Below are positions 7,143-60,486 of a stretch of DNA of 64,000 nucleotides, one piece after another. Position 1 is the stretch's first letter; every line of letters starts with the position of its first letter. This DNA comes from a virus (Duplodnaviria > Heunggongvirae > Uroviricota > Caudoviricetes). The stretch is taken from the IMG/VR virus record IMGVR_UViG_2675903313_000009. The stretch is one strand, 5' to 3'. The position numbers and the translations under genes are program-made. Under the pieces are notes generated by a model. It made no database searches. It was not told the DNA's origin and saw only the letters and a program-made list of their open reading frames with translations.

Positions 7143-7235
7143 TGGTGGAAAAAAAAATTTATATCGGTAAAAATAGGTAAGTATTTACTTAATGGCGGGC
7201 AAGGTTGGCCCGCCAAATCAAGGAGCATATTCAAC

Positions 7236-10200
7236 ATGTGGTACAGGGAAGGTACTATCACATTTACACAGGGTAGCAATACTCTGGTTGGGGCAGGGAC
7301 AGCCTGGAATGTAACAGCTAATGGTGTGTTGCCGGGGATGATCGTCATTGGCCCCGACAATAAGCTGTATGAGATCAAGCGCGTAATAAGCGATACGAAT
7401 ATTGTTCTCTCAGAACCTTATACCGGCGAAACTCAGTCTGAGGTTCCGTGCCGAATCATTACGACCTATGAAGGCGACTTAACACAGTTTAGCGCGCGCT
7501 TTACTGCGCTAATGTCGCGTATGTCGGCTGATTCCAAGTCCATACGCAGTTGGTTGACTGCGCTGGATGAGGTGACAATCGAGCGTGAAGACGGTACAGA
7601 AGTGACCGTTAAGCCGCTAATGCAGATCGTCAACGAGCACAACGAAAACGTTGAGTGGTATAAAAATAACACTGACGCGATTGATGCTGCTGGCGACAAA
7701 GCTCGTGAGGCGGCGGCCAGTGCTGCCGCAGCAGCAAAAAGCGCCAATGTCGCTGGAGAAAAAGCCTCTCAAGCGTCTCAAAGTGCATCCGCTGCGGCAT
7801 CCTCACAAAGTGCCGCAAGTGCGAGTGCAACTGCTGCGAAAAAATCTGAAACGAATGCTGCAGCGTCACAAAAATCTGCAGCCACTTCTGCATCCACCGC
7901 GACCACGAAGGCGTCAGAAGCTGCCACCTCAGCCCGGGATGCGGCGGCCTCAAAAGAGGCAGCGAAATCATCAGAAACGAGCGCTGCCTCGAGCGCCGGC
8001 AGTGCAGCTTCCTCGGCAACGGCGGCAGGAAATTCCGCGAAGGCCGCAAAAACGTCTGAGACGAATGCGGATAACAGCGCACAGGCGGCAGCAGACTCAC
8101 AAACTGCATCGGCAAACTCCGCGACAGCAGCCAAAAAATCAGAAACCAACGCGAAAAATAGTGAGGCAGCAGCAAAGGTCAGCGAAACCAACGCTAAAGC
8201 GTCAGAGAACAAGGCGAAAGAATATCTCGACAAGGTCGGGGGACTCGTCAGCCCGATGACGCAATACGATTGGCCCGTTGTTACTGGTAATGAGTCTTTT
8301 TACATAAAGATCGCGAAACTTTCCGATCCCGGAAGCAACAATTGCCATGTAACGCTAATGGTTACTAACGGCGGTGACTACGGCTCCCCTTACGGAAACA
8401 TTGACTTTATCGAGATCTCGGCGCGCGGTCTGCCTTCTTCGCTTACTGCTGATAATGTATCTCGTTACCTGAGTATACGCCGTTTAGGGCCAACCGGGCT
8501 AATCAATAGCATGCAAATGCGTTACGGCCTGGTTAAAGGTGATGGCTTTATTGAGGTTTGGGCCTTCCAGCGTGCATTTATCAACGGCGCAAAGGTTGCG
8601 GTACTGGCGCAGACGGCACGCACGGAATTATACATTCCAGACGGATTTGTTAAGCAAACCGCCGCGCCTTCTGGATATGTTGAAGGCAACGTTGTAAGGA
8701 TTTACGACCAGGTAAACAAGCCGTCGAAATCGGATGTTGGACTTGGCAACGTAACGAACGATGCGCAGGTAAAAAAAACCGGCGATACAATGACCGGTGG
8801 GCTTACTTTTGCAAACGACTCAATCCTTGCCTGGATTCGGAATACTGACTGGGCGAAGATTGGATTTAAAAATGATGCCGATGGTGACACTGATTCATAC
8901 ATGTGGTTTGAAACAGGCGACAACGGCAATGAATATTTCAAATGGAGAAGCCGCCAGAGCACCACAACAAAAGACCTGATGAATCTTAAATGGGATGCTT
9001 TGTCTGTTCTTGTTAAAGCCCTTTTCAGCAGTGAAGTAAAAATATCGACAGTCAATGCACTGAGGATTTTTAATTCATCCTTTGGTGCTATTTTTCGCCG
9101 TTCTGAAGAAAGCCTGTATATCATCCCTACACGAGAAAATGAGGGTGAAAATGGAGATATTGGGCCATTAAGGCCATTCAACATCAACTTAAGAACAGGA
9201 GTTGTGTCTGTTGGTCATGGACTAAATGTTACTGGTGGCGTTAATGGTAGTTTGAACGGTAATGCTTCAACAGCTACGAAGTTGCAGACTGCGCGTACTA
9301 TTAATGGGGTGTCGTTTGACGGTTCTAAAAACATTGAGCTAACTCCAAGGTCTATAGGAACGATCAACTCAGCAACAATGTCTTTTAGTGGTGGTGCCGG
9401 ATGGTTCAAGCTGGCAACTGTAACCATGCCACAGGCCAGTTCCGTGGTTTACATAAGCCTGATTGGTGGTGCAGGGTATAACGTTGGCGCCCCGCAGCAA
9501 GCAGGCATCTCTGAGCTGGTTCTGCGTGCCGGAAATGGAAATCCAAAGGGTATTACTGGTGCATTATGGCGACGGACATCGGTTGGATTTACTAATTTTG
9601 CATGGGTGAATACATCCGGTGATACCTATGATGTTTATGTTGAAATAGGTAATTACGCCACAGGTGTTAATATTCAGTGGGATTATACCAGTAACGCCAG
9701 CGTAACGATTCATACATCACCAACTTATACAGCGAATAAACCAACTGGTCTTACTGATGGAACGGTATATGTCATTTACAGTTCGCACATTAAACCGACC
9801 GCCACGGATGTCGGCGCATTACCAATAACCGGAGGAAATCTCAACGGCGGTTTAACGGCTACTGGTGAGATCATTTCAAAATCGGCGAATGGTCTGCGCA
9901 TTGCCTATGGCAACTATGGATTCTTTATCCGTAATGACGGCGGCAGCACATATTTCATGCTAACAGCATCAGGAGATACATTAGGTTCATGGAACGGTTT
10001 GCGACCTATTACAATTAATAATACCAGCGGTGCTGTATCAATTGGTAATGGACTAAATGTGACTGGTGGCGTAAATGGTAGTTTGAACGGTAATGCTTCA
10101 ACAGCTACGAAGTTGCAAACAGCGAGAAACATCAATGGTGTTAAGTTTGATGGTTCAGGCGATATCAATATTAATACATTGGTATCTCGTGGCCGAGTTA

Positions 10201-11150
10201 CGGCGTTAAGCGGCTCTACTCAAGGCACTGCTGGCATTCAAATGTATGAGGCGTACAACAATAGCTACCCGACCACGTATGGCAACGTATTGCACATGAA
10301 AGGTGCGAGTGCTGCTGGTGAGAGCGAGTTGCTTATTGGCTGGAGTGGTACGAGCGGTGCACATGCGCCAGTTTTCATTCGCTCACGAAGAGATAACACA
10401 GGTGCAGCATGGTCAGCGTGGGCGCAGGTATATACCGCTAAGGATTCAATCCCTGGTGTGAATACAACTGGTAATCAGAACACTACTGGTAATGCCGCAA
10501 CCGCCACAAAATTGCAGACAGCAAGGAAAATTGCTGGTGTGGCGTTTGATGGCTCTGCCGATATAACTTTGACTGCGGCTAACCTTAATGCTTACACGAA
10601 AACAGAGGTAGCAAACCTTCTAAGTTCCTATGCAAGCAGATCATCACTGACAGGCTATAGTGGCAACCTGGATATTGTTGCTGAAACACTGGTTGTCAAA
10701 TCAGGCGGTAGTGGAGGGTTTGCTATATGGGATATTGGCACAACTACTAGCGGTGCCAATATGTACATTGATCCAAACCCAGGTATCAATACAGTTTGGC
10801 GTTCAACGTCTTCAAGGCGCTATAAAAAGGATATTGAAACATTACAAGATCGATATGCTGATGAACTTTTGTCATTAAGACCTGTTTGGTATCGTTCAAT
10901 TTGTCGAGGTGACCGAAAGAATTGGGGGTATTACGGCCTTATTGCTGAAGAGGTTGGTGAGATTGCCCCGCAATATGTCCATTGGCGTGAACCAACAAAT
11001 AATGATTCTCCAGAAGATATTTCCTCAAATGGTATGGTCGCTGAAGGAGTGATGTATGAGCGTTTGGTTGTACCACTCATTCATCATATTCAGCAATTGA
11101 CCAAAAGGGTTGAGGAGCTTGAAACGAAGTTAAATTCACCTAAAGAATAA
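7236..11150 (+). CDS. Side tail fibre protein with C-terminal intramolecular chaperone (S74-like autoproteolytic) domain
   Basis: 1304 aa; AGGAG RBS upstream; Ala/Ser-rich low-complexity stretch; motif [20 protein letters not shown] present three times; C-terminal block ([22 protein letters not shown]...GLIAEEV) resembles fibre chaperone domains. Confidence 0.8.
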
Positions 11151-11210
11151 ACAACTTCAATCGGGGCTGGAGCTAAACCAGCCCCTGCTTAAAAGTATAA
11201 GGATATATTT

Positions 11211-11465
11211 ATGAGCTATGGTGCACAGGTTTGGTCGCCATCAAGACAGGAGATGGTCAATGCGTTGGCCCCTGTTTATTACCTCGATTATTTTACTCCC
11301 TCTGGTTCAGGAAGTAGAACATATGAGGTTGAGGCGGGATTGGGAATCGACTATTACATAATGGACGTAACCAATGGAAAGTACACAAGTCTTACGGTTT
11401 CTGGAAATACCATTTCGTGGTCTGGAGCTAGTGGTAATTTAAACATATTGGTTTTTCAAAAATAA
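11211..11465 (+). CDS. Hypothetical protein (84 aa), tail-fibre-associated by position
   Basis: Track ORF with AAGGA-like RBS; no recognisable motif. Confidence 0.4.
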   Translation: MSYGAQVWSPSRQEMVNALAPVYYLDYFTPSGSGSRTYEVEAGLGIDYYIMDVTNGKYTSLTVSGNTISWSGASGNLNILVFQK

Positions 11466-12073
11466 TGTACGGAAGCAAGATATATCGATCTGACGGGAAG
11501 GTCTGGATGTCTCCTTCTTTGTCTCCTATCGTTTTTCAGAGAAAGCAGGTTGTTTCTTTGTCCGGCGGAACAGAGTTTAACACCAAAATATCTCCAGATC
11601 GTTCACCGATTATTTTTGTTGCCTATTCGAAAGCTGTTTCATTAATAGCCAACAGAATAGTGCGTAACAACCAGGTGATTTACAGTTTCGGAGGTCGGGG
11701 TAGCGACTCTAGTGCCACGATATACGTATTTTCGAAAGGTATAGCCAAAAAAGAAACTTGGGGCATGAGTTTTTTCAATGCACAAGGGGGGGAAATCTAT
11801 AATACGGCAAATATCCCACTTTCATTTACCTTTCTTAATAATACGGAGTGGAACAGCTCTGGAGGGCATGTTTTTGATTACCCTCCAGCGATAATCCCAA
11901 CATATGCGAATGTGTTCGCTGTTCCAGTACCGGGCGGAGCCATGACAATGGTTTATGGATATGCGGCGTATGGAAATACTGTTAGCTCGATATTCGTAAA
12001 CCAACTTAATGGCGGCCATAGTTTTAGCGTAAATGGCAGAGTACCGGTAATAAATAGAAATCTGTATAACTGA
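11465..12073 (+). CDS. Hypothetical protein (202 aa), Gly/Ser/Asn-rich; possible adhesin or fibre accessory
   Basis: Start overlaps previous stop; composition typical of beta-rich distal fibre proteins; no motif recognised. Confidence 0.45.
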   Translation: MYGSKIYRSDGKVWMSPSLSPIVFQRKQVVSLSGGTEFNTKISPDRSPIIFVAYSKAVSLIANRIVRNNQVIYSFGGRGSDSSATIYVFSKGIAKKETWGMSFFNAQGGEIYNTANIPLSFTFLNNTEWNSSGGHVFDYPPAIIPTYANVFAVPVPGGAMTMVYGYAAYGNTVSSIFVNQLNGGHSFSVNGRVPVINRNLYN

Positions 12074-12080
12074 TGAGTAA

Positions 12081-12314
12081 ATGATGAAAAGATTATTTCT
12101 AACAATAGCTGTTGTTCTCTCTCTTACTGGCTGCCAGAAATTGCCGACACCTATATGTTATGGTGAAGCTATCATTGGTGGACAGGAGACAGTCATACCC
12201 ATATATGCTGTTAAAAAAGTGAACGACTATACCTTATACAAAGCGGGTAGCATCTATAACTGGCGATGGGTTGGAGTAGGTGCTTTCTCATCAATCGGTT
12301 GCAATGCTGAATGA
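12081..12314 (+). CDS. Small lipoprotein (77 aa)
   Basis: N-terminus MMKRLFLTIAVVLSLTGCQ is a lipoprotein signal with lipobox LTGC; sits immediately after the fibre genes. Confidence 0.55.
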   Translation: MMKRLFLTIAVVLSLTGCQKLPTPICYGEAIIGGQETVIPIYAVKKVNDYTLYKAGSIYNWRWVGVGAFSSIGCNAE

Positions 12315-12383
12315 TAGGTAAGTACACACCTACAACAAAAGGGTGAAATGTGATATAAATCCGCCATCCCGATTTGACTTTTC

Positions 12384-12719
12384 ATGGAGGAAAACATGTC
12401 GAACGAGATGGCGGGCGTTACAACAGAGCAAGTTGAGCGTATTGCCGCGATCGTTGCTCGGGAGGTTGTTGGCAAATTAGGTAAAGAGCTACGTGAAGAA
12501 ATTGGCCAGGAGGTCAATGATCAGCTGAAAACCTACTTTGGTGATATGACCCCGGCGCAACATAGTATTCAACACTCCAATCTGGACAAACTCCTTAACC
12601 GGTTAGATTCCATCTCAAGTGGGTTCTTTGGCGGCATTGTTTCTAAAATAACGTCGTTCATTATTACCGCACTGCTTTTGGGGTTAGCCGCGTATGGCGT
12701 AAAAAGTGGACTGCAATAA
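12384..12719 (+). CDS. Putative holin (single C-terminal TM)
   Basis: 111 aa with hydrophobic helix ITSFIITALLLGLAAYGV near the C-terminus; directly precedes the putative endolysin. Confidence 0.4.
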   Translation: MEENMSNEMAGVTTEQVERIAAIVAREVVGKLGKELREEIGQEVNDQLKTYFGDMTPAQHSIQHSNLDKLLNRLDSISSGFFGGIVSKITSFIITALLLGLAAYGVKSGLQ

Positions 12720-12732
12720 CAGGAGATCAAGG

Positions 12733-13425
12733 ATGAAGACTCCGAGAGGCATTCGTAATAATAACCCCGGTAATCTTGATAAAGGATCACCGTGGCAAGG
12801 TCTGGTTGCGAATCCAGACGAACCGCGCTTTTGCACGTTTAAAGACCCTGTTTGGGGGATTCGTGCGCTGGCGGTGACTCTAATTACCTACCACGATAAA
12901 CGTCGCGCAAAAGACGGCTCAAGTATCGATACCATTCGTGAAGTTATTGAACGCTGGGCACCGCCGAATGAAAACAATACTGACGCCTACATTAATGAGG
13001 TGTCTAAAGCCGTTGGTGTAACCGCAGACATGATCATCGATCTGCATGATTACGACATCCTTCGACCTTTGGTTGAGGCAATCATTCGCCACGAGAATGG
13101 CCGAGGCCCGCTAAAAACGCTGAACACCTGGTATGCGGCAGAAGTTATTGAGGAAGGTCTGCGTCGAGCTGGCGTTGTTAAGCCGGTGAAAACCGTGAAG
13201 GCTGTTCCTGTAACTAAAGAAACCGCAGGCGCAACTGTTACAGCAGGTATTGGTCTGGCGCAGCTGGCCGATGTTATGCCGCAGGTTTCCGCTGCTATGG
13301 ATAAAGCACAAGGTCATATCTCTAGCGGGGATACAGTACGCATCATCTTCGGTATTGCCACTATTGTTGTGGCAGGATTCATTGCCTGGTCGCAGGTAAG
13401 AAAACACCAGAAAGGGATGGTCTAA
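12733..13425 (+). CDS. Putative endolysin / cell-wall hydrolase with C-terminal membrane helix
   Basis: ATG at 12733 preceded by AGGAG; conserved-looking N-terminal RGIRNNNPGNL block; assignment rests mainly on position between holin and spanin candidates. Confidence 0.4.
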   Translation: MKTPRGIRNNNPGNLDKGSPWQGLVANPDEPRFCTFKDPVWGIRALAVTLITYHDKRRAKDGSSIDTIREVIERWAPPNENNTDAYINEVSKAVGVTADMIIDLHDYDILRPLVEAIIRHENGRGPLKTLNTWYAAEVIEEGLRRAGVVKPVKTVKAVPVTKETAGATVTAGIGLAQLADVMPQVSAAMDKAQGHISSGDTVRIIFGIATIVVAGFIAWSQVRKHQKGMV

Positions 13426-13426
13426 T

Positions 13427-13678
13427 ATGCTAGGCAGCCTGATGACAAAGCTAAAAGTTGCTTTGATTACGCTGGCTGCCGTTCTTTTCGTTCTGGTCGG
13501 CGCTTACACGATGGGCGGAAATGCGGCGCGACGAGCAATGGAAGAGAAGGCAAAACAGGAAGACAGGAAACGACTTCAAAGCACAGTGGATGTCAAAAAT
13601 GAAACGGTTAATGAAGTGCGGCAAAAAGATGCCTCTGGTGTTCATCGCGAGCTGTTTGATAAATGGGTGCGTGATTAA
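13427..13678 (+). CDS. Putative i-spanin (Rz-like)
   Basis: 83 aa, N-terminal TM (LKVALITLAAVLFVLVGAY) followed by a charged helical region. Confidence 0.45.
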   Translation: MLGSLMTKLKVALITLAAVLFVLVGAYTMGGNAARRAMEEKAKQEDRKRLQSTVDVKNETVNEVRQKDASGVHRELFDKWVRD

Positions 13679-13826
13679 GACGCAGGCTCCAGGCGTGCTA
13701 TTCTGCGATGCTGCAAATCCTATCTATGTGAGTAGAGAGGATTTTATGACTGAGGAAACGGAGCGACAGTTGCTTATCCACAATACGATAGGTGAAAGGC
13801 TGTGTGAGTGGGGGCACCTGAACTGA
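13590..13826 (+). CDS. Putative o-spanin (Rz1-like lipoprotein) overlapping the i-spanin in another frame
   Basis: Internal start of track ORF 13521-13826; MSKMKRLMKCGKKMPLVFIASC carries a lipobox; the overlapping arrangement is typical of Rz/Rz1. Confidence 0.4.
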   Translation: MSKMKRLMKCGKKMPLVFIASCLINGCVIKTQAPGVLFCDAANPIYVSREDFMTEETERQLLIHNTIGERLCEWGHLN

Positions 13827-14050
13827 GTCGATGATTGATGAGTGGTCTCAGTTTACCTTTTATCCTAAAGATGGCATCTTCACTCATATACACGCCTGTT
13901 CACTCAAGCTCATGTTGAATCATTTAGTAATTTGATGTAGATTTATTAGGCATCCACGTAAGTGGGCACATACAGGCTACGCATCCTCGTAGCCTTCAAC
14001 CCCGAGAGGGGTGCCGCAATGACACTTGTGTTAACGGCTAAGGTGGATAT

Positions 14051-14470
14051 ATGCTAAATTATCATGACAATACGCGTTCTATGCAGACGATCCGCACCAA
14101 TACTGCGGTCATCGACAGCTTTCCTATGCGTATTCACAACAGTGAAGACGCAGTAGAAGTGCGACGTATGTTGTGCCGTGAATCAGCTAACCGCCAGCAC
14201 TTCATCGTCACTTTTAAGAGCGATGTGGCGCGTGCCGAAAAGATCTCTAATTCTACGTCACTGGTTAAACCGTTGGCCGAGGTTGTCGCTAACGGTAAAC
14301 GAACCTCTTTTGTTTTAGATGTTGCTGAACAATATCCTGACTTGAAGTGTTTAGATCGTGATATTTCTTCACGAATCAAACAAGTTGTAGAGTCTTTTAT
14401 GAAGAAATTCTGTAAAATCGATGATATGGAACCATCAACGGCACAGAATACTTCATGGCACCATCTCTAA
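14051..14470 (+). CDS. Hypothetical protein (139 aa)
   Basis: Track ORF; no motif recognised. Confidence 0.45.
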   Translation: MLNYHDNTRSMQTIRTNTAVIDSFPMRIHNSEDAVEVRRMLCRESANRQHFIVTFKSDVARAEKISNSTSLVKPLAEVVANGKRTSFVLDVAEQYPDLKCLDRDISSRIKQVVESFMKKFCKIDDMEPSTAQNTSWHHL

Positions 14471-15228
14471 TTGGTCAGGCGAACAGATTAATCCCTGAAA
14501 TAGAAGACTACAGCAAGGTCTTGTCTGAAATGCCGAGAGCGACGAGAATTATCGCTCTCGGTGAGTTCTATTTTATCTCCCGAGGTTTCGATCTAATTCG
14601 ATTTACCGAATACGAGCTTGTTGATTCGGCCTATGAACGCTGTATTGTTGGCGAGTGTCTTGAGTCATGTGATCCTGATTACCAAGAGCAGGAAGTTAAG
14701 CGACTCAAACGTGCTGGTTACACACCTCTTGAGATAGGAGCAGAAATTGAATCCTACAAGTTGCATGTGGGGCAGCCAGTCCAAACAGTCTTCCGCGTGG
14801 CCTACTGCGAGTTTCCAATCAAGGATAAATCTGGAGTAAAAGTCAGCGCCAAGCAGATTAGAGGGGTTTTTACTCATGCTGATTATATGGGATTAGGCAT
14901 CGCAAGTTTTGCTTACCTTTATCTCGTAGATAAGTATCAGTACTTGGTTTGCGATACGTTACAGACGGTAAAAGGCGCAACTCTTTGGGCTGTGAGTATG
15001 CGCAAACATGGACTGGTCGAAATTTACGATACGAAGAACGAAAATTTTATAGAGGAATTGGGTGAGGATGCCTGTGGCGTAAGTGGTTTTATTCCGTGGG
15101 ATATCGGTAAGTCTGACGGAGGCCAGATGCGAAGACGTGAAGAGTGGGGGACTAATAAAATCAATCTCACCCCAGGTGCTTGTACTCATATAGTGAACAT
15201 TCTGACTAAACGATCTATGAATCAATAA
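14455..15228 (+). CDS. Hypothetical protein (257 aa)
   Basis: Track ORF overlapping the previous gene; followed by a strong terminator. Confidence 0.5.
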   Translation: MAPSLIGQANRLIPEIEDYSKVLSEMPRATRIIALGEFYFISRGFDLIRFTEYELVDSAYERCIVGECLESCDPDYQEQEVKRLKRAGYTPLEIGAEIESYKLHVGQPVQTVFRVAYCEFPIKDKSGVKVSAKQIRGVFTHADYMGLGIASFAYLYLVDKYQYLVCDTLQTVKGATLWAVSMRKHGLVEIYDTKNENFIEELGEDACGVSGFIPWDIGKSDGGQMRRREEWGTNKINLTPGACTHIVNILTKRSMNQ

Positions 15229-15229
15229 A

Positions 15230-15250
15230 CCCGCTACGGCGGGTTTTTTG
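15230..15250 (+). terminator. Rho-independent terminator
   Basis: CCCGCTACGGCGGG hairpin followed by TTTTTTG. Confidence 0.75.
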
Positions 15251-15377
15251 TTATTAAGCCCCCCCTATGTACCTATCATTAAACCTTTACACCGCAGCCG
15301 TAGGCATTTAGGCTATATCACATATAAGAAAACAAGTTGTTTCAGACGATAATTATATACGCAAAGGGAACTCTCCA

Positions 15378-16046
15378 ATGACCAAGATCTTTGTGGTTGG
15401 CGGCACAAAGGGCGGGCCTGGCAAATCCACCGTTGCCCAGCAAATTGCCGTTTGCCTGAAAGTCAAAAAGAAGAAGAAGGTTTATATTACCGATATAGAT
15501 ATTCAGCGCACGACAACGAGCTGGTGTGAAGACCGTCGACAGAACGAAGACCTTGAGCTGATTCCTTTTGCATACGTTCAGGATGACATCATTAAGCACC
15601 TAAAATCGCTTCAGGGTAGAGCTGAGTTTGTAGTGGTAGATGCTGGTGGCTTCGACTCCGAAATTCAGCGACAAGCGATGCTGATGGCTGACGTTATCAT
15701 TATCCCGCTGCGTCCTAAGCGTCGTGATTTGAAATCTTTACGTGACATCGATCCTATTATCGACAATGTTCGCAATGTAAACGATAAAGTGAAGGTCCGC
15801 GCGGTCATGAACCAGTGCCCGGCTTTGCCATCACAAGTGTCTCGCATTCTGGCGGCTAAAGAGATTGTTGAGACGTTTGGCATCGAGTCTGCGCCAGTCA
15901 ATCTATATAACCGCAACGTCTATGATGATGCGGAAGAGTCTGGTCGTTCTATCTTTGAAATGACCGGTAGCGAGCGCGACAAAAAGGCGGAAGCCGAGTT
16001 TGAAGAATTTGTAGATTATCTGTTGAGTCTGGAGGAAGAAGAATAA
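15378..16046 (+). CDS. parA: ParA-like partition ATPase
   Basis: Deviant Walker A GGTKGGPGKST at the N-terminus; 222 aa, size of small type Ib ParA. Confidence 0.85.
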   Translation: MTKIFVVGGTKGGPGKSTVAQQIAVCLKVKKKKKVYITDIDIQRTTTSWCEDRRQNEDLELIPFAYVQDDIIKHLKSLQGRAEFVVVDAGGFDSEIQRQAMLMADVIIIPLRPKRRDLKSLRDIDPIIDNVRNVNDKVKVRAVMNQCPALPSQVSRILAAKEIVETFGIESAPVNLYNRNVYDDAEESGRSIFEMTGSERDKKAEAEFEEFVDYLLSLEEEE

Positions 16047-16405
16047 TGTCCATGAAAATGGGTGACCTAGCAAAGCGCAAAGAGCCTGATGCACCGGCTA
16101 AGAACACAACTCCTTTGCGCCAACCAGTCAGACCACAGGGACGCCCGACTCGTGGCAAAGAGAAAATTAAAAGCCGCACAATGTCACTGGAGGACGAATA
16201 CTTCGAACTGCTGGAGATGATGAAGTTCATCCCTCGCTTCGAGAAGTTCACTCGTTCTGACGTGATTCGTGCTGCTATTTTCCATCTTGCGGAGAAGACA
16301 CCGCAGGAAATCGAGGACATCGTGAAACTTAACGAGGCGATCACAGCTGCCGATGTCACGATGCGTACCGATGAAATCAAACGCGAGTTGATGAAGAAAG
16401 GTTAA
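16046..16405 (+). CDS. Small partition partner (ParG/ParB-like)
   Basis: 119 aa, basic N-terminus, overlaps the parA stop; fold assignment not verified. Confidence 0.5.
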   Translation: MSMKMGDLAKRKEPDAPAKNTTPLRQPVRPQGRPTRGKEKIKSRTMSLEDEYFELLEMMKFIPRFEKFTRSDVIRAAIFHLAEKTPQEIEDIVKLNEAITAADVTMRTDEIKRELMKKG

Positions 16406-16412
16406 TTTTATT

Positions 16413-16437
16413 GAGGTGCTGCTTGGCACCTCTTTCT
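16413..16437 (+). terminator. Rho-independent terminator after the partition operon
   Basis: GAGGTGC-TGCTTG-GCACCTC hairpin followed by TTTCT. Confidence 0.55.
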
Positions 16438-16449
16438 ATAGGTTCCCTA

Positions 16450-17169
16450 ATGCTCTACAAATATATTGGAAGTGAAGATTCGCAAAAAGTGTTACGTAAC
16501 CTCAAACGGTTTGTAGAGGACGGCACTATCTCTGCTAGCGCACCTTCTTCATTCAACGACCCATCAGAGTTCAAAGTTTCGATAACGATGGGAGGTACAG
16601 AAGTGGAGCACCGGAAACACTTTGAAGACAATGGATGTAAGGATTTTTCCTTTGAAGACTGGGATGCTGTAGCTCCTGAAGCTGCAAAATCGTTGGCTGT
16701 GGATTTGCGGAAAGAATCATTAGGGGCTTTTGGTGTGGTGTGCTTGTCACCAAACGAAGATAACATCTTGATGTGGTCACATTACTCAGTGTCGCATAAA
16801 GGTTTCTGCATAGGCTTTGATGATGATTTTGTTACCTCTATTGAGGGGTATCACAGCTTTGATAATGTGAAATATATACCTTCTGTTCCCGTGTTCGATG
16901 AAGTTACAGATGAGTTTAAGGTACTTTTTGATAAGCTCTTTTTCTACAAGCACGAATGCTGGAAATATGAGGAAGAACAAAGGGTTATTACTAAAAAAAT
17001 AGGCGCTCAGGCATTTGATAAGAAATATATTAGAGAGATCATTCTTGGACATAACGTTTCTCCTGAAGTAGAAGAATATGCCCGGACACAGCTAGACACG
17101 AGCATCGAGGTTTACAAAATGAGTACACCTGATGATGGTTATCTTCTTGTCAAAGAAAAGCTGAAGTAG
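16450..17169 (+). CDS. Hypothetical protein (DUF2971-like by motif memory)
   Basis: ATG at 16450 inside track ORF 16411-17169; begins MLYKY...; motifs FNDPSEF, MWSHYSVSHKGFCIGFD and ECWKYEEEQR resemble the DUF2971 pattern as I remember it (unverified). Confidence 0.5.
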   Translation: MLYKYIGSEDSQKVLRNLKRFVEDGTISASAPSSFNDPSEFKVSITMGGTEVEHRKHFEDNGCKDFSFEDWDAVAPEAAKSLAVDLRKESLGAFGVVCLSPNEDNILMWSHYSVSHKGFCIGFDDDFVTSIEGYHSFDNVKYIPSVPVFDEVTDEFKVLFDKLFFYKHECWKYEEEQRVITKKIGAQAFDKKYIREIILGHNVSPEVEEYARTQLDTSIEVYKMSTPDDGYLLVKEKLK

Positions 17170-17235
17170 CTCCAGACTTTCCTCAAATGATTATGTTGGG
17201 CGCTTTTCTTATTGAACTGGTTAGTGAGGCTAATA

Positions 17236-18408
17236 ATGGATTTGTTCTCAACCAAAATAGCAAAAAACAAGCTGCACGAATCTTTTAAACAGATTTATCA
17301 AGATAATACATATGCTCCAGTAAGAGAAGTGATACAGTCGTGGGGGCGTGGGTTACTGGAGCGTAGCGGTGAGCAGACTAAATTCGTTAAAGAGTTTCAG
17401 ACAACCTTCAATTCCGCCTTATGGGAATTGTATCTGAACGAAATGTTTATTCGTCTCGATTATTCTGTCGACTACACAAAAGACAGTCCCGATTTCTGTG
17501 TTACTACACCGTCAGGCTACCAGTTTAACGTCGAAGCTGTGATATCAGATCGGCCACATAATCCACCTGCAGGTGTTCTTTTTAGCGAATCAAAATTCAA
17601 ACATCAATCAACGCTAAAATTAATCGGAAAAATCAAAGACAAACATGATCTTTTTACAGGAGTTAATGGCAAAAAATTCCCGTACTCTACGATGTCTCAT
17701 GTAGTTAATAAGCCGTTTGTTCTGGCGCTTGCACCCTTTGACTCCGATTTATCATTGTCTCAAAATAACACAATCATCAATCGAGTGTTGTTTGGCATTG
17801 AGGAACCTACCACCAGAAATTTGGTGACTGGCAGCCAAACTAAAGTTACCTCAATCAAAAAGAATGAAGACGTTGAAATTCCATTAGGTATATTTACTAA
17901 CGACTCATATAAAGAAATAAGTGCGGTTATTTTCTCCACCACCGGCACTTTTGGAAAAGCCGTGGTTCAAAGCGGTATCGGTAGATATGTAAGGTCAACA
18001 CGATATCGAGCCATTGATGTGAATGATTTCATCGCCAATGAAGGGATGAAAAACGAGGGAAAGCACACACAAAGGATAGGACCTGATCATTTCATCACTA
18101 CATATCGGCATTTTTTAAATAACGAAGTCACTGGTGCGGATATTGTAGTTTGTCATTCCACTGCTCATGAAGAGACGCACTTTGACGGCCTTCATATTTA
18201 CTACAATCCTTTTGCGACAGTGCCACTGGACAGAAATATTTTCTTCCCCCCAGAGATAACTCATAATTTTTACGATATGGAAAAAGAACAGTCTGTTCAG
18301 AATCATCCTGATGGAGCGCTGGTATCTAGACAGGTTTTTGAACCAACTAGAGCACATTTTAGGTATATCATGAAACATTGGTTTCCAGGCTTTCTAAAAG
18401 ATGTTTAA
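17236..18408 (+). CDS. Hypothetical protein (about 390 aa), no recognisable domain
   Basis: Internal ATG of track ORF 17212-18408, preceded by a GAGG-like RBS; more AT-rich than the flanking modules; 66 nt downstream of the DUF2971-like gene, same strand. Confidence 0.5.
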   Translation: MDLFSTKIAKNKLHESFKQIYQDNTYAPVREVIQSWGRGLLERSGEQTKFVKEFQTTFNSALWELYLNEMFIRLDYSVDYTKDSPDFCVTTPSGYQFNVEAVISDRPHNPPAGVLFSESKFKHQSTLKLIGKIKDKHDLFTGVNGKKFPYSTMSHVVNKPFVLALAPFDSDLSLSQNNTIINRVLFGIEEPTTRNLVTGSQTKVTSIKKNEDVEIPLGIFTNDSYKEISAVIFSTTGTFGKAVVQSGIGRYVRSTRYRAIDVNDFIANEGMKNEGKHTQRIGPDHFITTYRHFLNNEVTGADIVVCHSTAHEETHFDGLHIYYNPFATVPLDRNIFFPPEITHNFYDMEKEQSVQNHPDGALVSRQVFEPTRAHFRYIMKHWFPGFLKDV

Positions 18409-18432
18409 GCATCCTGCTGGTTGAATTTGGAA

Positions 18433-18495
18433 CCTGCTTCTGTATATAAATACTAAGTTACTTATTATTATTTATACGGAAGCAGGTCTTTTTCT
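18433..18495 (+). terminator. Long AT-rich palindrome / terminator closing the cassette
   Basis: CCTGCTTCTGTATATAAATA ... TATTTATACGGAAGCAGG inverted repeat followed by TCTTTTTCT; loop contains TAAGTTACTTAT. Confidence 0.55.
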
Positions 18496-18596
18496 ATGCC
18501 AACTTCCCAGACACATTCCCTTCCGTTTCCACTTCCAAAAACTGCCACCAGTCGCTATCATCCGCTCATTGCAATAAGTAAGTAACTACCTATCTG

Positions 18597-19346: not shown

Positions 19347-19389
19347 CTAATACTAGAAAACAATTTGTTTAAAAAACAAAGGAAAGCAC

Positions 19390-23777: not shown

Positions 23778-23902
23778 TGGTGAATGCCGGGCAGACTATA
23801 AGCCCGGCATCTTCGTATAGGGAACTATTGCGCCTAAAATGATAAGTAGATACATACTTAGTTTTTTGTAAGAATACTTTCATCTGTTAGCTAGGAGTTG
23901 GT

Positions 23903-24679: not shown

Positions 24680-24746
24680 GCTCTCTGTGTGTCGTTTTTT
24701 ACGCAAACAATGATAGGTAAGCACAAGATTATTTCTGGCGGTAATT

Positions 24747-27347: not shown

Positions 27348-27737
27348 AAACATATTGATAAGTATTTACTTACTTATCTTTTGTGTATAAGATGACTTTG
27401 TTTTCGTTGAGACGCGACTGTTTGAACTTAAATACAAGTGCAAACGAAGAAGTCTATCTGGCAGTAGCCTAATAAGCCAAACACCAGCGAGGTCAGTTTC
27501 CAGCCTCGTTACCGAAATGGGACACACTGAGCGAGTGTGATTGCAGAACGCAGGAGGGAACATTCATGTTCCCTCCGATGAAGTAACAGAATGGGCGGTT
27601 GGTATATTTTCAACTCCATATGACTCCCGGATTCTTAGCCACTGACCGCCCATCCTGTTACGTCATTTTGTTCAATTATGTCGTTTATACTGGGTTAAAA
27701 AGCGGCGACGTAGCCCGGCTGGTATGGTTAGCCAGCA

Positions 27738-28125: not shown

Positions 28126-28200
28126 GATGGTGTAGCTCAGCGGTAGAGCAGTTGGCTGTTAACCAACTGGTCGGTGGTTCGAATCCACCCACCATCGCCA
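28126..28200 (+). tRNA. tRNA-Asn (anticodon GTT)
   Basis: Hand-folded cloverleaf: acceptor GATGGTG/CACCATC, anticodon loop CTGTTAA, T-loop TTCGAAT, encoded CCA. Confidence 0.8.
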
Positions 28201-30104: not shown

Positions 30105-30278
30105 GTATGTATTTCACTCTACTAACTATAAATTATTAGGCTAATGTTAACCAAACAATGCCTTAATTAATAGATTGATCGAGGCTTTAATAGCTTTATA
30201 ATGCAGACTGCAAAGATAAGTATGCACATACCTATCTTCTTTGTAAGTAAAGTTGCATATCAATTCTATGAGGTAACA

Positions 30279-30734: not shown

Positions 30735-31838
30735 ATGAAAAATAGCTTTGACAGAGCACGCGCTGCGGAGAACACCTCAAAAGAGGCGATTGAGTATCTC
30801 GAAAGAGCATCTCAAATGCAGGCCGTTATGATCTCGCAGGTCAGCAATGACATGAGATTCTCGGACGCATTCATGTTATTCACTCGCTTATCTCTGCTGA
30901 TAACAAGACGTCGGCCAGAGATCGCTGTTCATTGTATTTTGATACATGTTTTGCCGCACATTGCCGATGTAAAAGTAAGTGACATTAATAGGTTCATGGT
31001 GAACCAACTGGTCAACCCACTAATACTGGATGGCAAAATTGTTATGGGCCGCCGCGTTTTCTCTCTGATGAAGCAGTTCCTTAGCTGGTGCGCCTTCCAG
31101 GGGATGATAGACGTGTCACCGTTAAACGATATGTCACTAAACAAAGTTGCCGGTGGCGCAAAGCCCACACCTCGCGAGCGGAAGCTGACCGACGCAGAGG
31201 TATGGGTGTTCTGGAATATATGGGACTACTTCAATGTGTGCGCTGGTACAAAATGGGCGGCCAGGCTGTGTCTTGTATCCGCAAGACGACCTGACGAAGT
31301 ACTGCGGGCTAAAAAAAGTGAGTTCAATCTTAAGCGTGGGGTTTGGAATCAAGGCAAGAGGAACAAATCTGCCCGTGAGCATTCGCTGCCTTTAAGCACA
31401 TTAATGCGCACATGTATTGAAGAGTTGTTCGAATACGGTAAAGGCAGCCAGTGGCTCGTGCCTTCGAATAAAAAAATCGGGAAAGACCTTCCTATGTCTA
31501 AAGTGGCAATAGCCCAGGCATTACGTCGTATCCTGGAACGACCAGAACTGATGGAGCTTGAGCCATTTACACCCCGAGACTTGCGCCGTACTGCGCGTAG
31601 TTACTTCCCAGCATTAGGCATAAGCCAGGAGGTATCACGCAAAATCATGAACCACAGTCTTGAGGGGATAGATCGAGTCTACGACCGGCACGATTATATG
31701 GACGAGATGCGAGACGCCTTAGAAAGTTTCTCGACGTACATCGCATCAATCGTAGAGCAACCGGATTTAGACGAAATTGACCACAAATTCAAGGGAGATC
31801 GTCTATCAACAGAGCTTATTCGTGTAAATTTTTCATAG
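30735..31838 (+). CDS. Tyrosine recombinase / integrase-like protein
   Basis: C-terminal half has catalytic-type blocks (..ARRPDEVL.., ..TPRDLRRTARSY.., ..NHSLEGIDRVYDRHDY..); the usual His of the H-x-x-R box appears as Arg; start uncertain. Confidence 0.6.
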   Translation: MKNSFDRARAAENTSKEAIEYLERASQMQAVMISQVSNDMRFSDAFMLFTRLSLLITRRRPEIAVHCILIHVLPHIADVKVSDINRFMVNQLVNPLILDGKIVMGRRVFSLMKQFLSWCAFQGMIDVSPLNDMSLNKVAGGAKPTPRERKLTDAEVWVFWNIWDYFNVCAGTKWAARLCLVSARRPDEVLRAKKSEFNLKRGVWNQGKRNKSAREHSLPLSTLMRTCIEELFEYGKGSQWLVPSNKKIGKDLPMSKVAIAQALRRILERPELMELEPFTPRDLRRTARSYFPALGISQEVSRKIMNHSLEGIDRVYDRHDYMDEMRDALESFSTYIASIVEQPDLDEIDHKFKGDRLSTELIRVNFS

Positions 31839-32219
31839 AGACTTTATGGCCTCAACAACCTTTTGTGATGCGCCTTTCTCTTTACCGAATCGCTCGTTAT
31901 ATGCAGCAAGAACCTGTTTTTCGTCCTCGTTAAGAGGAGCGGTGCCTTCTTTGTATAAAAATGCTGCGAGTTCAGGTTGGCGTTCTTCCAGCACCATCAT
32001 CATAAGACGACTTGGCTCAATACCCAGCGCCAGCGCCAACGGACGAACCTTATCGATAGGCAAAGGAATTTTGCCACTTTTAATTAAAGAAAGGTTGTTG
32101 GCATTTTTATAACCAATAAGTCTGGCTATTTGGGCCTGACTCATAGGTGAGGATTCAATCAGCCCTGCGATAAAAGCAGCATAGCGACTTTCTATAAATT
32201 CAATCTTGTTGTCAGACAT
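31833..32219 (-). CDS. HTH (XRE-family-like) transcriptional regulator, candidate repressor
   Basis: HTH-like segment MSQAQIARLIGYKNANNLSLIKSGK; divergent from a promoter region containing GGTAAGTGCTTACC palindromes. Confidence 0.65.
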   Translation of the reverse strand: MSDNKIEFIESRYAAFIAGLIESSPMSQAQIARLIGYKNANNLSLIKSGKIPLPIDKVRPLALALGIEPSRLMMMVLEERQPELAAFLYKEGTAPLNEDEKQVLAAYNERFGKEKGASQKVVEAIKSL

Positions 32220-32469
32220 TGTTACAACCTTTGCGCGTTCAATTCTCTCTGGTAAGTGCTTACCGATATTACATCAAAGGTTAGGGTTGTAAAGCTATTA
32301 TCATTTTTTCGATAGGCACTTAAAAGACCGGTTAAAGGCCATTGCACGGAGAAAAATTAGCCCAAAACAGGTAAGAAAATTAACTTGCATATGATATGAA
32401 TGTATTCAGTATTGATATAAATTTTAGTAGTATTCCTTACCATAGTATAAGTTAGAATGGATTGATTGA

Positions 32470-34889: not shown

Positions 34890-34984
34890 ACAAAACAGCC
34901 TTAACGATAAGTAACCACTTACGATATATAATGATATATTTATATAAGAAGTTGAACGCTCATTAGAGAACAAAGGAAAAACGC

Positions 34985-40476: not shown

Positions 40477-40593
40477 TTTTTGATAGATAATAAGTATGTA
40501 CTGATCTATTATTTAACAGCTCGAAAGAGCCACGAATGAACGAAAGCCCAACGCGCATAGCGCCATCGGCCAAATCACAACAAGGAGAAACAC

Positions 40594-43969: not shown

Positions 43970-43975
43970 ACACAA

Positions 43976-43998
43976 GGCGTCCACAGGACGCCTTTTTT
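43976..43998 (+). terminator. Rho-independent terminator (GGCGTCC...GGACGCC family)
   Basis: GGCGTCC-ACA-GGACGCC followed by TTTTTT. Confidence 0.75.
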
Positions 43999-44061
43999 AT
44001 CTCTTGAAAATATATAAGTACTTACTTATTATTTTCGCATAACAACCACATAGGAAAACAC

Positions 44062-45138: not shown

Positions 45139-45187
45139 TCGCAATTATCTTATTAAGAAAACAATTTGTTTAAAAGGATAAGAAAAC

Positions 45188-45613: not shown

Positions 45614-45668
45614 TCGCCTATTCATAACTAACAAAATAAGTAAACACTAACCACAAAAGGAAAAACAC

Positions 45669-45944: not shown

Positions 45945-46159
45945 GTTTACAGTAAAGTTTATATAAGTTAGTATCTACCTATCATGAAGATTTTTATTGA
46001 ATACTTGTTACTCATCGTTTCAATAGCTTTTGTCATCGACTGCATTTTCACTGGTGTCATTCGTAAAGTCTTTTCCCCGGTGCACGACGTAGTCATAAAC
46101 GCTTTGGCTATCGTGCTCGTATTTAATTCAGCATTTGATGTAATCAAAGAGGTGGCAGC

Positions 46160-49761: not shown

Positions 49762-50052
49762 TGATAATCAATCCTTTTTCAATTTGGAAAATTCCTCTTA
49801 TACGGTAATTGTTGATAATAAAAATATCAAATGATACATGACCCATGAGATAGTTCATTCATATGTAACGATGAGACTTTTGCCTACCATATACATCTAA
49901 GCACTTCAATGAAACTCTAGCCGCCTTGTAAGCAATCCATTCAACAATTTTGGTAGGTATTCACTTACCTATTTATTTTGTAATACTATGCCTGTTGATG
50001 TTCTTCTGTGCCGTGCTGTGTTGGTTGCTCACCTCTCGAGCAAGCTTAAGAT

Positions 50053-54626: not shown

Positions 54627-54660
54627 TTTCATTGATAGGTAAGTGCTTATCTATTAACAT

Positions 54661-54692
54661 GGGCCACTATATTTAGTGGCCCTCTTTATTTG
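54661..54692 (+). terminator. Rho-independent terminator
   Basis: GGGCCACTA-N-TAGTGGCCC hairpin followed by a T-rich tract. Confidence 0.6.
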
Positions 54693-57050: not shown

Positions 57051-57121
57051 TTGTAAGCCTTGTTTAAACACATAAGATAACAACTTGTTTAAACGCACCA
57101 AAAAAGAAAAAGGAAAAACAC

Positions 57122-59211: not shown

Positions 59212-59355
59212 TTGTAGGTAGTTATCTATCTGTGTATATTGCGTTGGCGCGTTAAATTTCTGAAACAACTATTCGTTTTTGGTGGCCTGTGGCCACCATT
59301 TTTTTATCTATCTGGTCTTGTTCTCTCAATAAATGTAAACTCACACAATGAATAA

Positions 59356-60486
59356 GTGATTACTTATCTTTGTGAGGTTTTTGTGTCACTCCTTTTGAAT
59401 CGTGAGCATACGAACGGTCAGGTAACAAACGCATCGTATGCAAAAGTTATTGAGACGGTGCTTAAAAGCGGCGTGCAGGCTGATGATCGCACAGGCACTG
59501 GTACTTTAAGCACCTGCTACGTTCCCTCTTACTACATGCTTACTGGTGGGACTGTGCCGCTTATTTCTGGAAAGGCGGTAAATCTTAAGCCACTACTTGT
59601 CGAACTTGAGTGGTATCTGAAAGGCACGGGCAACATCCAATTTCTCAAGGATAACGGCGTTAAGATTTGGGATGCATGGGCCGATGAGAATGGCGATTTG
59701 GGGCCGGTTTACGGTAAGCAGTGGCGTCGATGGGAAGATACCCGCATCGTGAGCCATAGTGAATATCTGAGCAAGATCGATACTTTCCGTGAACGCGGGT
59801 ACAAAGTCGAGGGATACCTGGGTATCAGTGAAGATCGCGTAGTGCTGTCCCGTGAAATCGATCAGCTACAGCGTATTGTCGATACACTGCGCACGAACCC
59901 TACCGATCGTCGCATCATGCTTAACGCATGGAACGTAGGCGAGCTTGAGGATATGAAACTGCCACCTTGCCACTTTGTCTTCTCTTTGTGGAGTCGTGAG
60001 CTTGATTTTGAAACCCGTTTAACGATGGCAACTGACATTGGTCTTCAACACAGTCGCCTCGGTTATGAGTCTATCTACACCAAGATGCTATACGATCTGG
60101 AGATGGACGGCAGTGTTACTGAAACTGAACTGGATGAACTTGGAATCCCCAAACGCATCCTCAACTCCTGCCTCGTACAGCGTAGCGTAGACACTTTTGT
60201 TGGTATGCCATTCAATATTGCTGGCTATGGCATTCTCACTCATTTTCTCGCGAAGATTACGGGTCACATGGCCGGTGCATTTGTGCATTTTGGCTTTGAC
60301 GTGCATTTGTACAACAACCACATGGAAGGTGTGTGTGAGCTAATGCAACGACAGGCTCCAGAGCATTCAGATCCGGTCGTTATATTCCCTAATGAATGGT
60401 CTGAGCTGGATGATTTCAAATGGGACGAGATTCTTATTCTTGGCTATGCCCCTCTACCGTGGATCAAGGTTCCAGTGGCGGTGTGA
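59356..60486 (+). CDS. thyA: Thymidylate synthase family enzyme with two insertions
   Basis: Blocks DRTGTGTLS, WDAWADENGDLGPVYGKQWRRW, NAWNVGELEDMKLPPCHFVF, GMPFNIAGYGILTHF match ThyA; 376 aa versus about 264 aa; GTG at 59383 after a GAGG RBS is a likelier start. Confidence 0.8.
   Translation: MITYLCEVFVSLLLNREHTNGQVTNASYAKVIETVLKSGVQADDRTGTGTLSTCYVPSYYMLTGGTVPLISGKAVNLKPLLVELEWYLKGTGNIQFLKDNGVKIWDAWADENGDLGPVYGKQWRRWEDTRIVSHSEYLSKIDTFRERGYKVEGYLGISEDRVVLSREIDQLQRIVDTLRTNPTDRRIMLNAWNVGELEDMKLPPCHFVFSLWSRELDFETRLTMATDIGLQHSRLGYESIYTKMLYDLEMDGSVTETELDELGIPKRILNSCLVQRSVDTFVGMPFNIAGYGILTHFLAKITGHMAGAFVHFGFDVHLYNNHMEGVCELMQRQAPEHSDPVVIFPNEWSELDDFKWDEILILGYAPLPWIKVPVAV

Follow-up and report, generated by a model that had tools for sequence, protein, structure and literature searches.

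Phage P1, whose prophage is a plasmid, employs a single repressor (C1) at many dispersed operators, each of which serves a separate lytic operon, instead of governing a single early transcript (PMC8198154). In mycobacteriophage L5 and its Cluster A relatives, the stoperators number 20 to 30 per genome and occupy short intergenic spaces in both the structural and the replication arms, some within promoters and most not (PMC6550527, PMC9283540). The site consensus and the repressor co-vary between Cluster A lineages, and some members are extrachromosomal prophages (PMC6550527, PMC9283540). Each L5 site is an asymmetric 13-mer that binds a repressor monomer and always points the same way relative to transcription (PMC6550527). 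Here, we describe an 18-bp palindrome built from TAAGT/ACTTA half-sites that recurs in a stretch of 64,000 nucleotides (nt) from IMG/VR record IMGVR_UViG_2675903313_000009, hereafter the window, which is ∼60% of an Escherichia coli SSU5-like phage-plasmid. Our reading, to which we assign a probability of roughly 0.6, is that the copies are dispersed operators of the element's own prophage repressor, a helix-turn-helix (HTH) dimer that would silence the lytic operons in the plasmid state.

The likeness to the P1 C1 system lies in dispersed operators for individual lytic operons of a plasmid prophage, and other immunity components and antirepressors are present in both. C1, a monomeric protein outside the XRE class, recognises 17-bp operators that lack symmetry (consensus ATTGCTCTAATAAATTT), and the P1 late genes are controlled separately, via Lpa. 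Here, in contrast, the site is a two-fold symmetric 18-mer of unrelated sequence that does not match the C1 operator family, the candidate binder is a small protein of probable XRE type, and the structural genes bear the same site. With the L5 stoperators, the element shares ∼30 intergenic copies before structural and replication genes as well as the covariation of site and candidate repressor. The stoperator geometry, however, is not matched: the site is two-fold symmetric, so that a dimer is expected, the asymmetry of its flanks shows a weak orientation bias in the enterobacterial genomes (35 versus 19), the hosts are Gram-negative, and a roadblock role is conjectured. In shape, the site resembles the operators of lambda, 434, and P22, which are palindromes of 14 to 18 bp with conserved outer bases and a variable centre, are bound by HTH dimers, overlap -35/-10 elements, and include repressor autoregulation. 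In those phages, the operators form two or three clustered sets within a single immunity region, whereas here ∼30 copies are spread over 100 kb. We consider it probable that this is a dispersed repressor operator regulon, like P1 and L5 in function and like 434, P22, and lambda in site shape, that stands outside the P1 and L5 sequence families. Within the incomplete coverage of our literature search, neither the motif nor any operator of an SSU5-like element was found described.

A preliminary description of this sequence had pointed to TAAGT/ACTTA half-sites recurring as palindromes in intergenic regions, and this observation holds. The consensus TAAGTNNNNACTTA (TAAGT-N4-ACTTA) occurs 16 times in the window with at most one mismatch, compared to 1.74 times in dinucleotide shuffles, none of 100 of which reached 16. 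In an unbiased count, TAAGT-N4-ACTTA ranks first among all 5-mer palindromic dyads with spacers of 0 to 12. Together, the shuffles and the dyad count rule out chance or AT-rich composition as the origin of the motif. The spacers, which had been described as variable, turned out to be registers (N0, N4, and N8) of one unit, the 18-bp palindrome TAAGTAAGT/ACTTACTTA (arms are separated by a slash throughout). Each arm contains a pair of overlapping TAAGT units, and the two-fold symmetric consensus is TAAGTAAGTACTTACTTA. Most copies retain three of the four TAAGT units. Sites were scored with a symmetric 18-bp matrix derived from three genomes, the maximum score being 27. At a score of at least 14, the window contains 13 sites versus 0.18 in shuffles, and at a score of at least 10, it contains 20 versus 1.2. 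The matrix was trained on genomes that it scores, and the significance rests also on the plain consensus and the unbiased dyad count; by either measure (16 versus 1.74; 13 versus 0.18), the motif is enriched over shuffled sequence, whereas a lack of such enrichment would, by the preliminary description, have refuted its claim.

All 13 strong sites are intergenic, although intergenic DNA is only 11.5% of the window (binomial P = 6e-13; site 59349 is intergenic only once the thyX start is corrected). The hexamer TAAGTA/TACTTA has the highest intergenic enrichment of any hexamer (25 in 7.4 kb of intergenic DNA versus 18 in 56.6 kb of coding DNA), and clusters of at least two TAAGT/ACTTA words within 25 nt are intergenic in nine of nine cases. 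Sixteen of the 36 intergenic gaps of 40 nt or more bear a copy, and the motif stands before about half of the lytic operons. The genes behind it belong to tail, tail-fibre, lysis, replication, recombination, and nucleotide-metabolism operons; the regions upstream of parA and repA have no copy. With five plausible weaker copies (34908, 32249, 45633, 18447, and 24714) added to the 13 strong ones, there are ∼18 copies in the 64-kb window, and copies per genome amount to ∼30.

The large open reading frames of the window encode a lambda-J-type tail tip protein, a tail fibre, DnaB, a ligase, CobT, a DnaE-type polymerase, SbcCD, and ribonucleotide reductase. Nearly all genes lie on the plus strand, and four tRNA genes are found at 28126-28649. 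Gene models were obtained heuristically and then corrected by comparison with relatives. The SSU5 supergroup and the AB group are evolutionary relatives (Pfeifer et al., PMC7969092). Among the members of this SSU5/AB superfamily are pMT1 of Yersinia pestis, pHCM2-like Salmonella plasmids, and resistance-carrying Klebsiella and Acinetobacter elements.

The motif is abundant in the relatives as well. SSU5 contains 26 matches of the 14-mer versus ∼1.4 expected, the Klebsiella plasmid pL3995-2 (Kp, whose DnaE is only 65% identical) contains 33 versus 1.4 expected, often in the form TAAGTAAnCATTTACTTA, and Cyrano has 30 matrix matches. In these three genomes, sites also precede the portal, capsid-decoration, tail, Dam methylase, and ParB-like operons. 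Alignments upstream of nrdA, the gene for the single-stranded DNA-binding protein (SSB), and the CobS-like gene reveal the motif as a conserved block while the adjoining intergenic sequence diverges; conservation of the copies at orthologous intergenic positions, whose absence the preliminary description had named as a refutation, is thus borne out. More distant members carry variant half-sites. An Acinetobacter baumannii AB-group phage-plasmid of the same architecture uses TCAGT, with TCAGT-N4-ACTGA present 22 times versus 0.12 expected. Its 36 sites have the consensus aaaTCAGTCAsTACTGACT and the registers 0, 4, and 8, and ∼30 of them are co-oriented with genes, a strong co-orientation seen only in this variant. 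The Klebsiella oxytoca lineage (plasmid CP056499.1), in which the HTH helix is altered, prefers TATGT...ACATA (10 matches versus 0.4 expected). The 29-kb Photorhabdus plasmid pPAU1 retains tail genes, the HTH-integrase module, and TAAGT-N8-ACTTA sites.

The copies in the window are given below, with predicted promoters written as -35 element, spacer length, and -10 element.

258..275: strong site TAAGTAAGT/ACTAATTTA, score 21.4, upstream of the minor-tail-protein-L gene (ATG at 298 or, likelier, 331); the predicted promoter TGGATA-17-TATCAT spans the site, and hairpin 286-308 follows.
7174..7191: strong site TAGGTAAGT/ATTTACTTA, score 24.6, 44 nt before the tail-fibre gene (7236); orthologues at SSU5 21938 and Cyrano 22449; hairpin 7193-7215 follows.
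12315..12332: strong site TAGGTAAGT/ACACACCTA, score 19.6, before the holin-like gene (12384); the Cyrano orthologue at 26658 lies ahead of a holin gene.
18447..18464: weak site TAAATACTA/AGTTACTTA, score 10.9, inside the loop of a long hairpin that is followed by a T-run.
18575..18592: strong site TAAGTAAGT/AACTACCTA, score 20.9, 13 nt before the ATG (18606) of the gene ahead of dnaB; orthologues at SSU5 33601 and Cyrano 31297.
23843..23860: strong site TAAGTAGAT/ACATACTTA, score 19.8, before 23903, the first gene of the ligase operon; orthologue at SSU5 38179.
24714..24731: degenerate site TAGGTAAGC/ACAAGATTA, score 9.0, good in the left arm only, before 24747; the SSU5 orthologue near 39084 is better kept.
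27359..27376: strong site TAAGTATTT/ACTTACTTA, score 22.7, at the start of the non-coding DNA ahead of the tRNA cluster (28126-28649); predicted promoter TTTACT-17-TAAGAT; conserved at SSU5 41774 and Kp 27593.
30217..30234: strong site TAAGTATGC/ACATACCTA, score 20.9, 44 nt before the glutaredoxin gene (ATG ∼30279; Pfam Glutaredoxin).
32249..32266: moderate site CTGGTAAGT/GCTTACCGA, score 10.7, where transcription of the HTH gene is predicted to start; positions 32251-32264 form the core palindrome GGTAAGTGCTTACC.
34908..34925: moderate site TAAGTAACC/ACTTACGAT, score 11.4, 59 nt before the CobS-like AAA gene (34985); GATAAGTAAnnACTTA is the conserved block in the alignment.
40491..40508: strong site TAAGTATGT/ACTGATCTA, score 17.9, before the gp32-like SSB gene (40594); it fills the spacer of the predicted promoter TAGATA-17-TATTAT, and the geometry is the same in SSU5 and Kp (TTGATA-17-TATCAT in Kp).
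44011..44028: strong site TATATAAGT/ACTTACTTA, score 21.5, before small membrane-protein genes (44062); it fills the spacer of TTGAAA-17-TATTAT, whose predicted promoter score of 13.1 is the highest of the set; terminator 43974-43994 lies upstream; orthologues at SSU5 55696 and Kp 53559.
45633..45650: weak site AAAATAAGT/AAACACTAA, score 11.0, 18 nt before the ATG at 45669; orthologue at SSU5 57747.
45964..45981: strong site TAAGTTAGT/ATCTACCTA, score 17.3, ending 2 nt before the ATG at 45984; identical sites at SSU5 58075 and Cyrano 59400.
49954..49971: strong site TAGGTATTC/ACTTACCTA, score 20.1, in the divergent region between 49761 (minus strand) and the sbcD-like gene (50053); orthologues at SSU5 63081 and Cyrano 63200.
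54636..54653: strong site TAGGTAAGT/GCTTATCTA, score 22.8, before nrdA (54700), inside the predicted promoter TTGATA-17-TAACAT (score 11.8) and followed by hairpin 54661-54682; the site and its hairpin are conserved in SSU5, Cyrano, and Kp by alignment.
59349..59366: strong site TGAATAAGT/GATTACTTA, score 17.3, ∼16 nt before the thyX start (∼59383), with terminator 59280-59298 located 50 nt upstream; the Cyrano orthologue at 72600 lies 12 nt before CYRAN_72.

Twelve copies had been read by eye in the preliminary description. All 12 strings are present in the sequence, 11 of them within ∼5 nt of where they had been placed, and the one assigned to 32275 actually lies at 32249-32266. When rescored, nine are strong (7174, 12315, 18575, 23843, 27359, 44011, 49954, 54636, and 59349; 17-25 of 27), two are moderate (34908, 11.4; 32249, 10.7), and 24714 is degenerate (9.0), with one good arm. 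The strong copies at 258, 30217, 40491, and 45964 and the weak ones at 18447 and 45633 had been missed. Two statements about their surroundings need revision. The distance from site end to start codon, given before as 30-80 nt, ranges from 2 to ∼85 nt, and a position just after a terminator, said to be frequent, applies to only two of 16 sites (44011 and 59349); three sites instead have a hairpin behind them. These three GC-rich hairpins (286-308, 7193-7215, and 54661-54682) begin 2-11 nt after a motif copy and end just before a gene, and T-runs accompany two of them. For sites 258 and 54636, transcription is predicted to begin within the 5' arm of the next hairpin, and hairpins 286-308 and 54661-54682 may stop incoming transcripts but not those begun at the motif. 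At 27359, the sequence just 3' of the site (27377-27440, containing ttgttttcgttgagacgcgactgtttgaac), in the long non-coding stretch ahead of the tRNA cluster, is nearly identical to SSU5 41788-41850 and may be a leader or a small RNA.

The candidate binder is encoded next to cobT, and one copy of the palindrome lies in the promoter region of its gene.

31833..32219, minus strand: gene for a probable XRE-type HTH protein of 128 amino acids, homologue of Cyrano CYRAN_45 ("putative repressor").
32266..32293, minus strand: predicted promoter of the HTH gene, with -35 TTTACA (32288-32293), a 16-nt spacer, and -10 TAATAT (32266-32271); conserved across lineages.

The HTH protein matches PHROG 8, "transcriptional regulator" (E = 6.6e-12), and, weakly, Pfam HTH_19 (18.9 bits versus a cut-off of 30.2), and its homologues are annotated as XRE family in public records. 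A single-sequence structural model reached a predicted local distance difference test score of 73. The top fold matches of this model are all XRE/lambda-repressor-like (Stl, a Salmonella phage repressor, C.AhdI, HipB, and lambda cI), with probabilities of 0.9-0.99 and E values of only 0.16-1. A sequence search against solved structures returned no close relative (best E = 0.14). The protein has no S24 self-cleavage domain. A tblastn search places it in 961 plasmids, with a spread over host genera nearly identical to that of the DnaE gene; it also occurs in nine of 12 related phage records. Even the distant Klebsiella plasmid and the Acinetobacter plasmid retain the integrase, the HTH gene, and the small divergent gene as a module beside cobT.

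The claim that a copy lies in the promoter of the HTH gene holds for the predicted promoter: site 32249 is positioned at the predicted +1 and is conserved in several lineages. Directly after the TAATAT of this predicted promoter stands (G/A)GTAAGCACTTACC, which is kept in E. coli, Yersinia, Kluyvera, and a lineage of 68% identity while the rest of the region diverges. In the K. oxytoca equivalent, TATATT-g-TATGTACTTACTTA, the palindrome again directly follows the -10 element. Upstream of the HTH gene, a pair of strong copies lies 31 bp apart in the Klebsiella pL3995 lineage, and the Acinetobacter element has two half-matching copies. In addition, the recognition helix and the half-site change together. 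The helix xNANN(L/I)SLIKSG (E. coli, Yersinia, and Klebsiella pL3995) and the helix KANNLSMIKSG (Photorhabdus) occur with TAAGT, even at 47% protein identity, the helix PNVNTLSIIKAG occurs with TATGT, and the helix RPNVLSMIKSG occurs with TCAGT. This parallel change lends modest support to the HTH protein as the binder; it is supportive rather than decisive.

SSU5 has no homologue of the HTH protein. Compared with window 28650-32780, SSU5 (42525-42761) is without three of the four tRNA genes, a 420-amino-acid gene, glutaredoxin, the integrase, the HTH repressor, and the small divergent gene, i.e., the deletion spans from the tRNA genes to cobT. This suggests that SSU5 is a virulent deletion derivative, the sole full-length relative checked that is without the repressor, and the missing module fits the isolation of SSU5 as a plaque-forming phage. 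We considered whether the absence of the HTH gene from SSU5 excludes the protein as the binder. This argument fails given the deletion and the presence of the HTH protein in 961 plasmids and nine of 12 phage records. Since SSU5 keeps the sites and grows lytically without the HTH gene, the HTH protein is not a required activator.

Published RNA-seq data of the Cyrano lysogen (supplement 2, PMC9928086) show the first genes after sites at background (median ∼8.6 versus 9.8), CYRAN_34 (43.7) being the exception among genes downstream of sites. The putative repressor CYRAN_45, the toxin-antitoxin pairs, the parA operon, and repA are expressed (PMC9928086). These data proved uninformative for telling a repressor from an activator, as the genes behind both this motif and the second palindrome described below are at background. 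Two further observations may bear on the lysogenic switch. Expression of CYRAN_46 (window 32470-32682), the small gene divergent from the repressor, rises from log2 ∼4.3 in lysogeny broth to ∼10.8 in macrophages at 6 h, together with that of the integrase and the HicAB pair, and CYRAN_46 may act in the switch as the partner on the lytic side. At Cyrano ∼89280-89300, beyond the window, a canonical LexA box, TACTGTATGTGTATACAGTA, is located directly upstream of CYRAN_98 (S24-peptidase-like; 148 in the lysogen versus the background of 9.8). This box may link SOS signalling to induction; Cyrano is ciprofloxacin-induced.

Position-pair, flank, and promoter analyses were carried out on 71 sites. The best predicted sigma-70-type promoter per site has a mean score of 8.25 versus 6.7 for shuffled flanks, and at 20% of the sites, it exceeds the shuffled 95th percentile. 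In the best-scoring predicted promoters, the centre of the palindrome is mostly at -19.5 or ∼-22.5, such that the palindrome fills the 17-nt spacer between -35 and -10. Examples are TTGAAA-17-TATTAT (44011), TTGATA-17-TAACAT (54636), TAGATA-17-TATTAT (40491), and TTGATA-17-TATCAT (Kp 49339), and the geometry recurs at orthologous predicted promoters in three genomes. In a second group, e.g., 27359, the right arm provides the -35-like TTTACT and the centre lies near -33. The mean of all 71 sites has no -35 consensus, and positions 17-22 read TAT(C/T)A(T/A). Sites 45964, 18575, 59349, and 45633 end 2-18 nt before a start codon, which leaves no room for a promoter of that gene. Inspection of four sites had suggested a fixed -10 element (TGTAAGAAT or TATAAGAT) ∼27 nt past the motif; it was discarded as a general feature, since the 71 sites contain no information beyond +19. 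Expression falls ninefold between CYRAN_30 and CYRAN_31, whose intervening gap contains two sites (window 18409-18596), but this drop is not counted as evidence of a roadblock, as the gap also holds a long-loop hairpin with a T-run that could be a terminator. In window 1-20000, consensus sigma-70 promoter matches are depleted (16 versus 32.3 ± 7.0 in shuffles).

A second genome-wide palindrome, AAACAANTTGTTT, occurs five times in the window versus 0.39 expected, in gaps without the TAAGT motif.

15330-15342: copy of AAACAANTTGTTT before parA.
19358-19370: copy before dnaB.
32749-32761: copy before cobT.
45159-45171: copy before the gene at 45188.
57078-57090: copy before nrdB.

SSU5 has 24 copies, the Klebsiella plasmid 20, and Cyrano 18, and the Acinetobacter plasmid has essentially none. 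This palindrome is usually placed ∼13 nt after a GATAAT-like -10 element, with 11-35 nt left to the start codon; at some loci, another copy covers the -35 element. It probably belongs to a second regulator. Plasmid RK2 (IncP) offers a parallel, in that KorA and KorB have short palindromic operators at many promoters, the two regulators have distinct sites and together coordinate the silencing of the plasmid's operons, and KorB is a ParB homologue that acts at a distance. The two genome-wide palindromes here, TAAGT-type and AAACAANTTGTTT, recall that arrangement; however, the proteins and sequences are different, and we found nothing that ties either motif to the ParB-like genes.

Based on these observations, our current hypothesis is that the 18-bp palindrome is occupied by a dimer of the HTH protein which, sitting between -35 and -10 or on the -35 element of host sigma-70 promoters, would block RNA polymerase. 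Each lytic operon would be kept off separately while the element replicates as a plasmid. The weaker copy at +1 of the HTH gene promoter would provide negative autoregulation, and the copies too near a start codon for a promoter could be roadblocks. The promoters are predicted, and we infer the binding, the direction of regulation, and the roadblock role. The preliminary description had already proposed operators of a dimeric regulator that overlap promoters, with the HTH protein as the candidate binder; this proposal fits all comparative tests and leaves the copies 2-18 nt before start codons uncovered.

Other explanations for the palindrome were weighed against these data. One that we regard as unlikely is that the palindrome is the site of a phage-encoded activator recruiting host RNA polymerase to promoters with a -10 element and a poor -35 element. 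The P1 late promoters, which depend on Lpa, are of this kind: they have a -10 element and an inverted repeat near -22 but no -35 element, and they stand before several late operons. An activator would be consistent with the mean of the 71 sites, in which a -35 element is absent, positions 17-22 are -10-like, and the centre of the palindrome is near -20 as in many predicted promoters here. It would also fit the co-oriented Acinetobacter sites, which are often directly followed by TATACT or TACAAT, the retention of all sites in SSU5 without the HTH gene, the silence of the genes behind sites in lysogens, and the depletion of consensus sigma-70 promoters in the window. Yet the best cases are near-consensus -35/-10 pairs at 17-nt spacing with the palindrome in between, a placement that blocks polymerase rather than helps it; promoters this near to the consensus should not depend on an activator. 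The centre lies near -20 only in a subset, and its position relative to the predicted -10 varies from ∼-9 to -36, unlike a fixed activator site. Several -35 elements are good, and the motif precedes early-type and late-type genes alike, including replication, nucleotide-metabolism, and repressor genes, which differs from the Lpa-type pattern. An activator also does not predict the conserved +1 copy at the HTH promoter or the covariation of helix and half-site, and no candidate activator was found (an Lpa homologue was not searched for).

It is quite improbable, in our estimate, that the palindrome is the site of a host factor or of another phage DNA-binding protein with a non-transcriptional role (ParB-like or nucleoid-organising), for which the intergenic location would be incidental. 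The half-site does differ between the enterobacterial and the Acinetobacter elements and could track a host protein, and the elements encode two ParB-like proteins, with one site just before that operon. However, K. oxytoca (TATGT) and Klebsiella pneumoniae (TAAGT) are close hosts whose elements have different half-sites, the half-site follows the helix of the phage HTH protein, and the sites coincide with predicted promoters and conserved promoter blocks. To our knowledge, no E. coli factor has this consensus. The view that the palindrome is an RNA hairpin for mRNA processing, stability, or translation strikes us as scarcely credible. It would explain the copies 2-18 nt before start codons, some of which are directly before ribosome-binding sites, and some copies fold better than shuffles (e.g., 27351-27384, -8.3 kcal/mol, z = -4.4). 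Pair 3-16 alone among the symmetric positions has an excess of Watson-Crick combinations (G-C with A-T). Against an RNA element, A-C mismatches still occur at that pair in 14 of the 71 sites, and the other eight of nine pairs vary as expected for independent arms. The predicted hairpins are weak (-3.6 to -8.3 kcal/mol), half of them are no better than shuffles, and the stem register and loop size differ from copy to copy. The sequence conservation is far above the need of a 5-8-bp AU-rich stem, and the spacer-filling copies would sit upstream of the transcript start. A search of the window against Rfam gave no family match at motif sites, with only the four tRNA genes reaching gathering scores. 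Specific bases kept in both arms around a free centre are instead the pattern that suggests a dimeric DNA-binding protein.

Several points weigh against our preferred reading of the palindrome as repressor operators. The promoters are all predicted, and most sites have no convincing -35 element, while binding and regulation are deduced from sequence comparison. The position relative to the predicted -10 is not uniform, with clusters near -20 and -33 and some sites without room for a promoter. Early-type and late-type genes alike have the motif ahead of them, which is unusual for a classical prophage repressor, though known in mycobacteriophage L5. At the HTH promoter of the window, the copy is a modest match (10.7 of 27). 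The covariation of helix and half-site consists of only two changes, both of which fall at deep phylogenetic splits. Absence of an activator would account for the lysogen expression data just as well. Finally, the palindrome AAACAANTTGTTT implies that the element has two or more regulators, and the pairing of motifs with proteins could be swapped or shared.

A broader version of the repressor reading can be put forward only tentatively. It would hold that silencing of this kind is a previously undescribed trait of the whole superfamily, in which an XRE repressor acts on ∼30 18-bp palindromes, part of them spacer operators and part of them promoter-less roadblocks, as a symmetric Gram-negative counterpart of the stoperators. 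The half-site would co-evolve with the helix and define immunity groups, and AAACAANTTGTTT would control the remaining operons.

One observation on the tRNA cluster stands apart from the regulon. The fourth tRNA gene (28562-28649) is tRNA-Ser(tga) by ARAGORN and also scores 47.3 with the Rfam tRNA-Sec model, whose gathering score is 47. The tRNA-Sec match is probably an artefact of the long variable arm.

SSU5-like phage-plasmids are common in clinical Enterobacteriaceae and Acinetobacter and carry resistance genes. That a plasmid prophage can have a dispersed repressor regulon is a principle already known from P1 and L5. For the SSU5-like elements, the lysis/lysogeny switch becomes open to direct test, with an operator sequence, a candidate repressor, and the predicted target promoters listed here, and loss of the repressor module would explain the lytic behaviour of the SSU5 isolate. 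The half-site (TAAGT, TATGT, or TCAGT) may allow immunity groups to be predicted from sequence.

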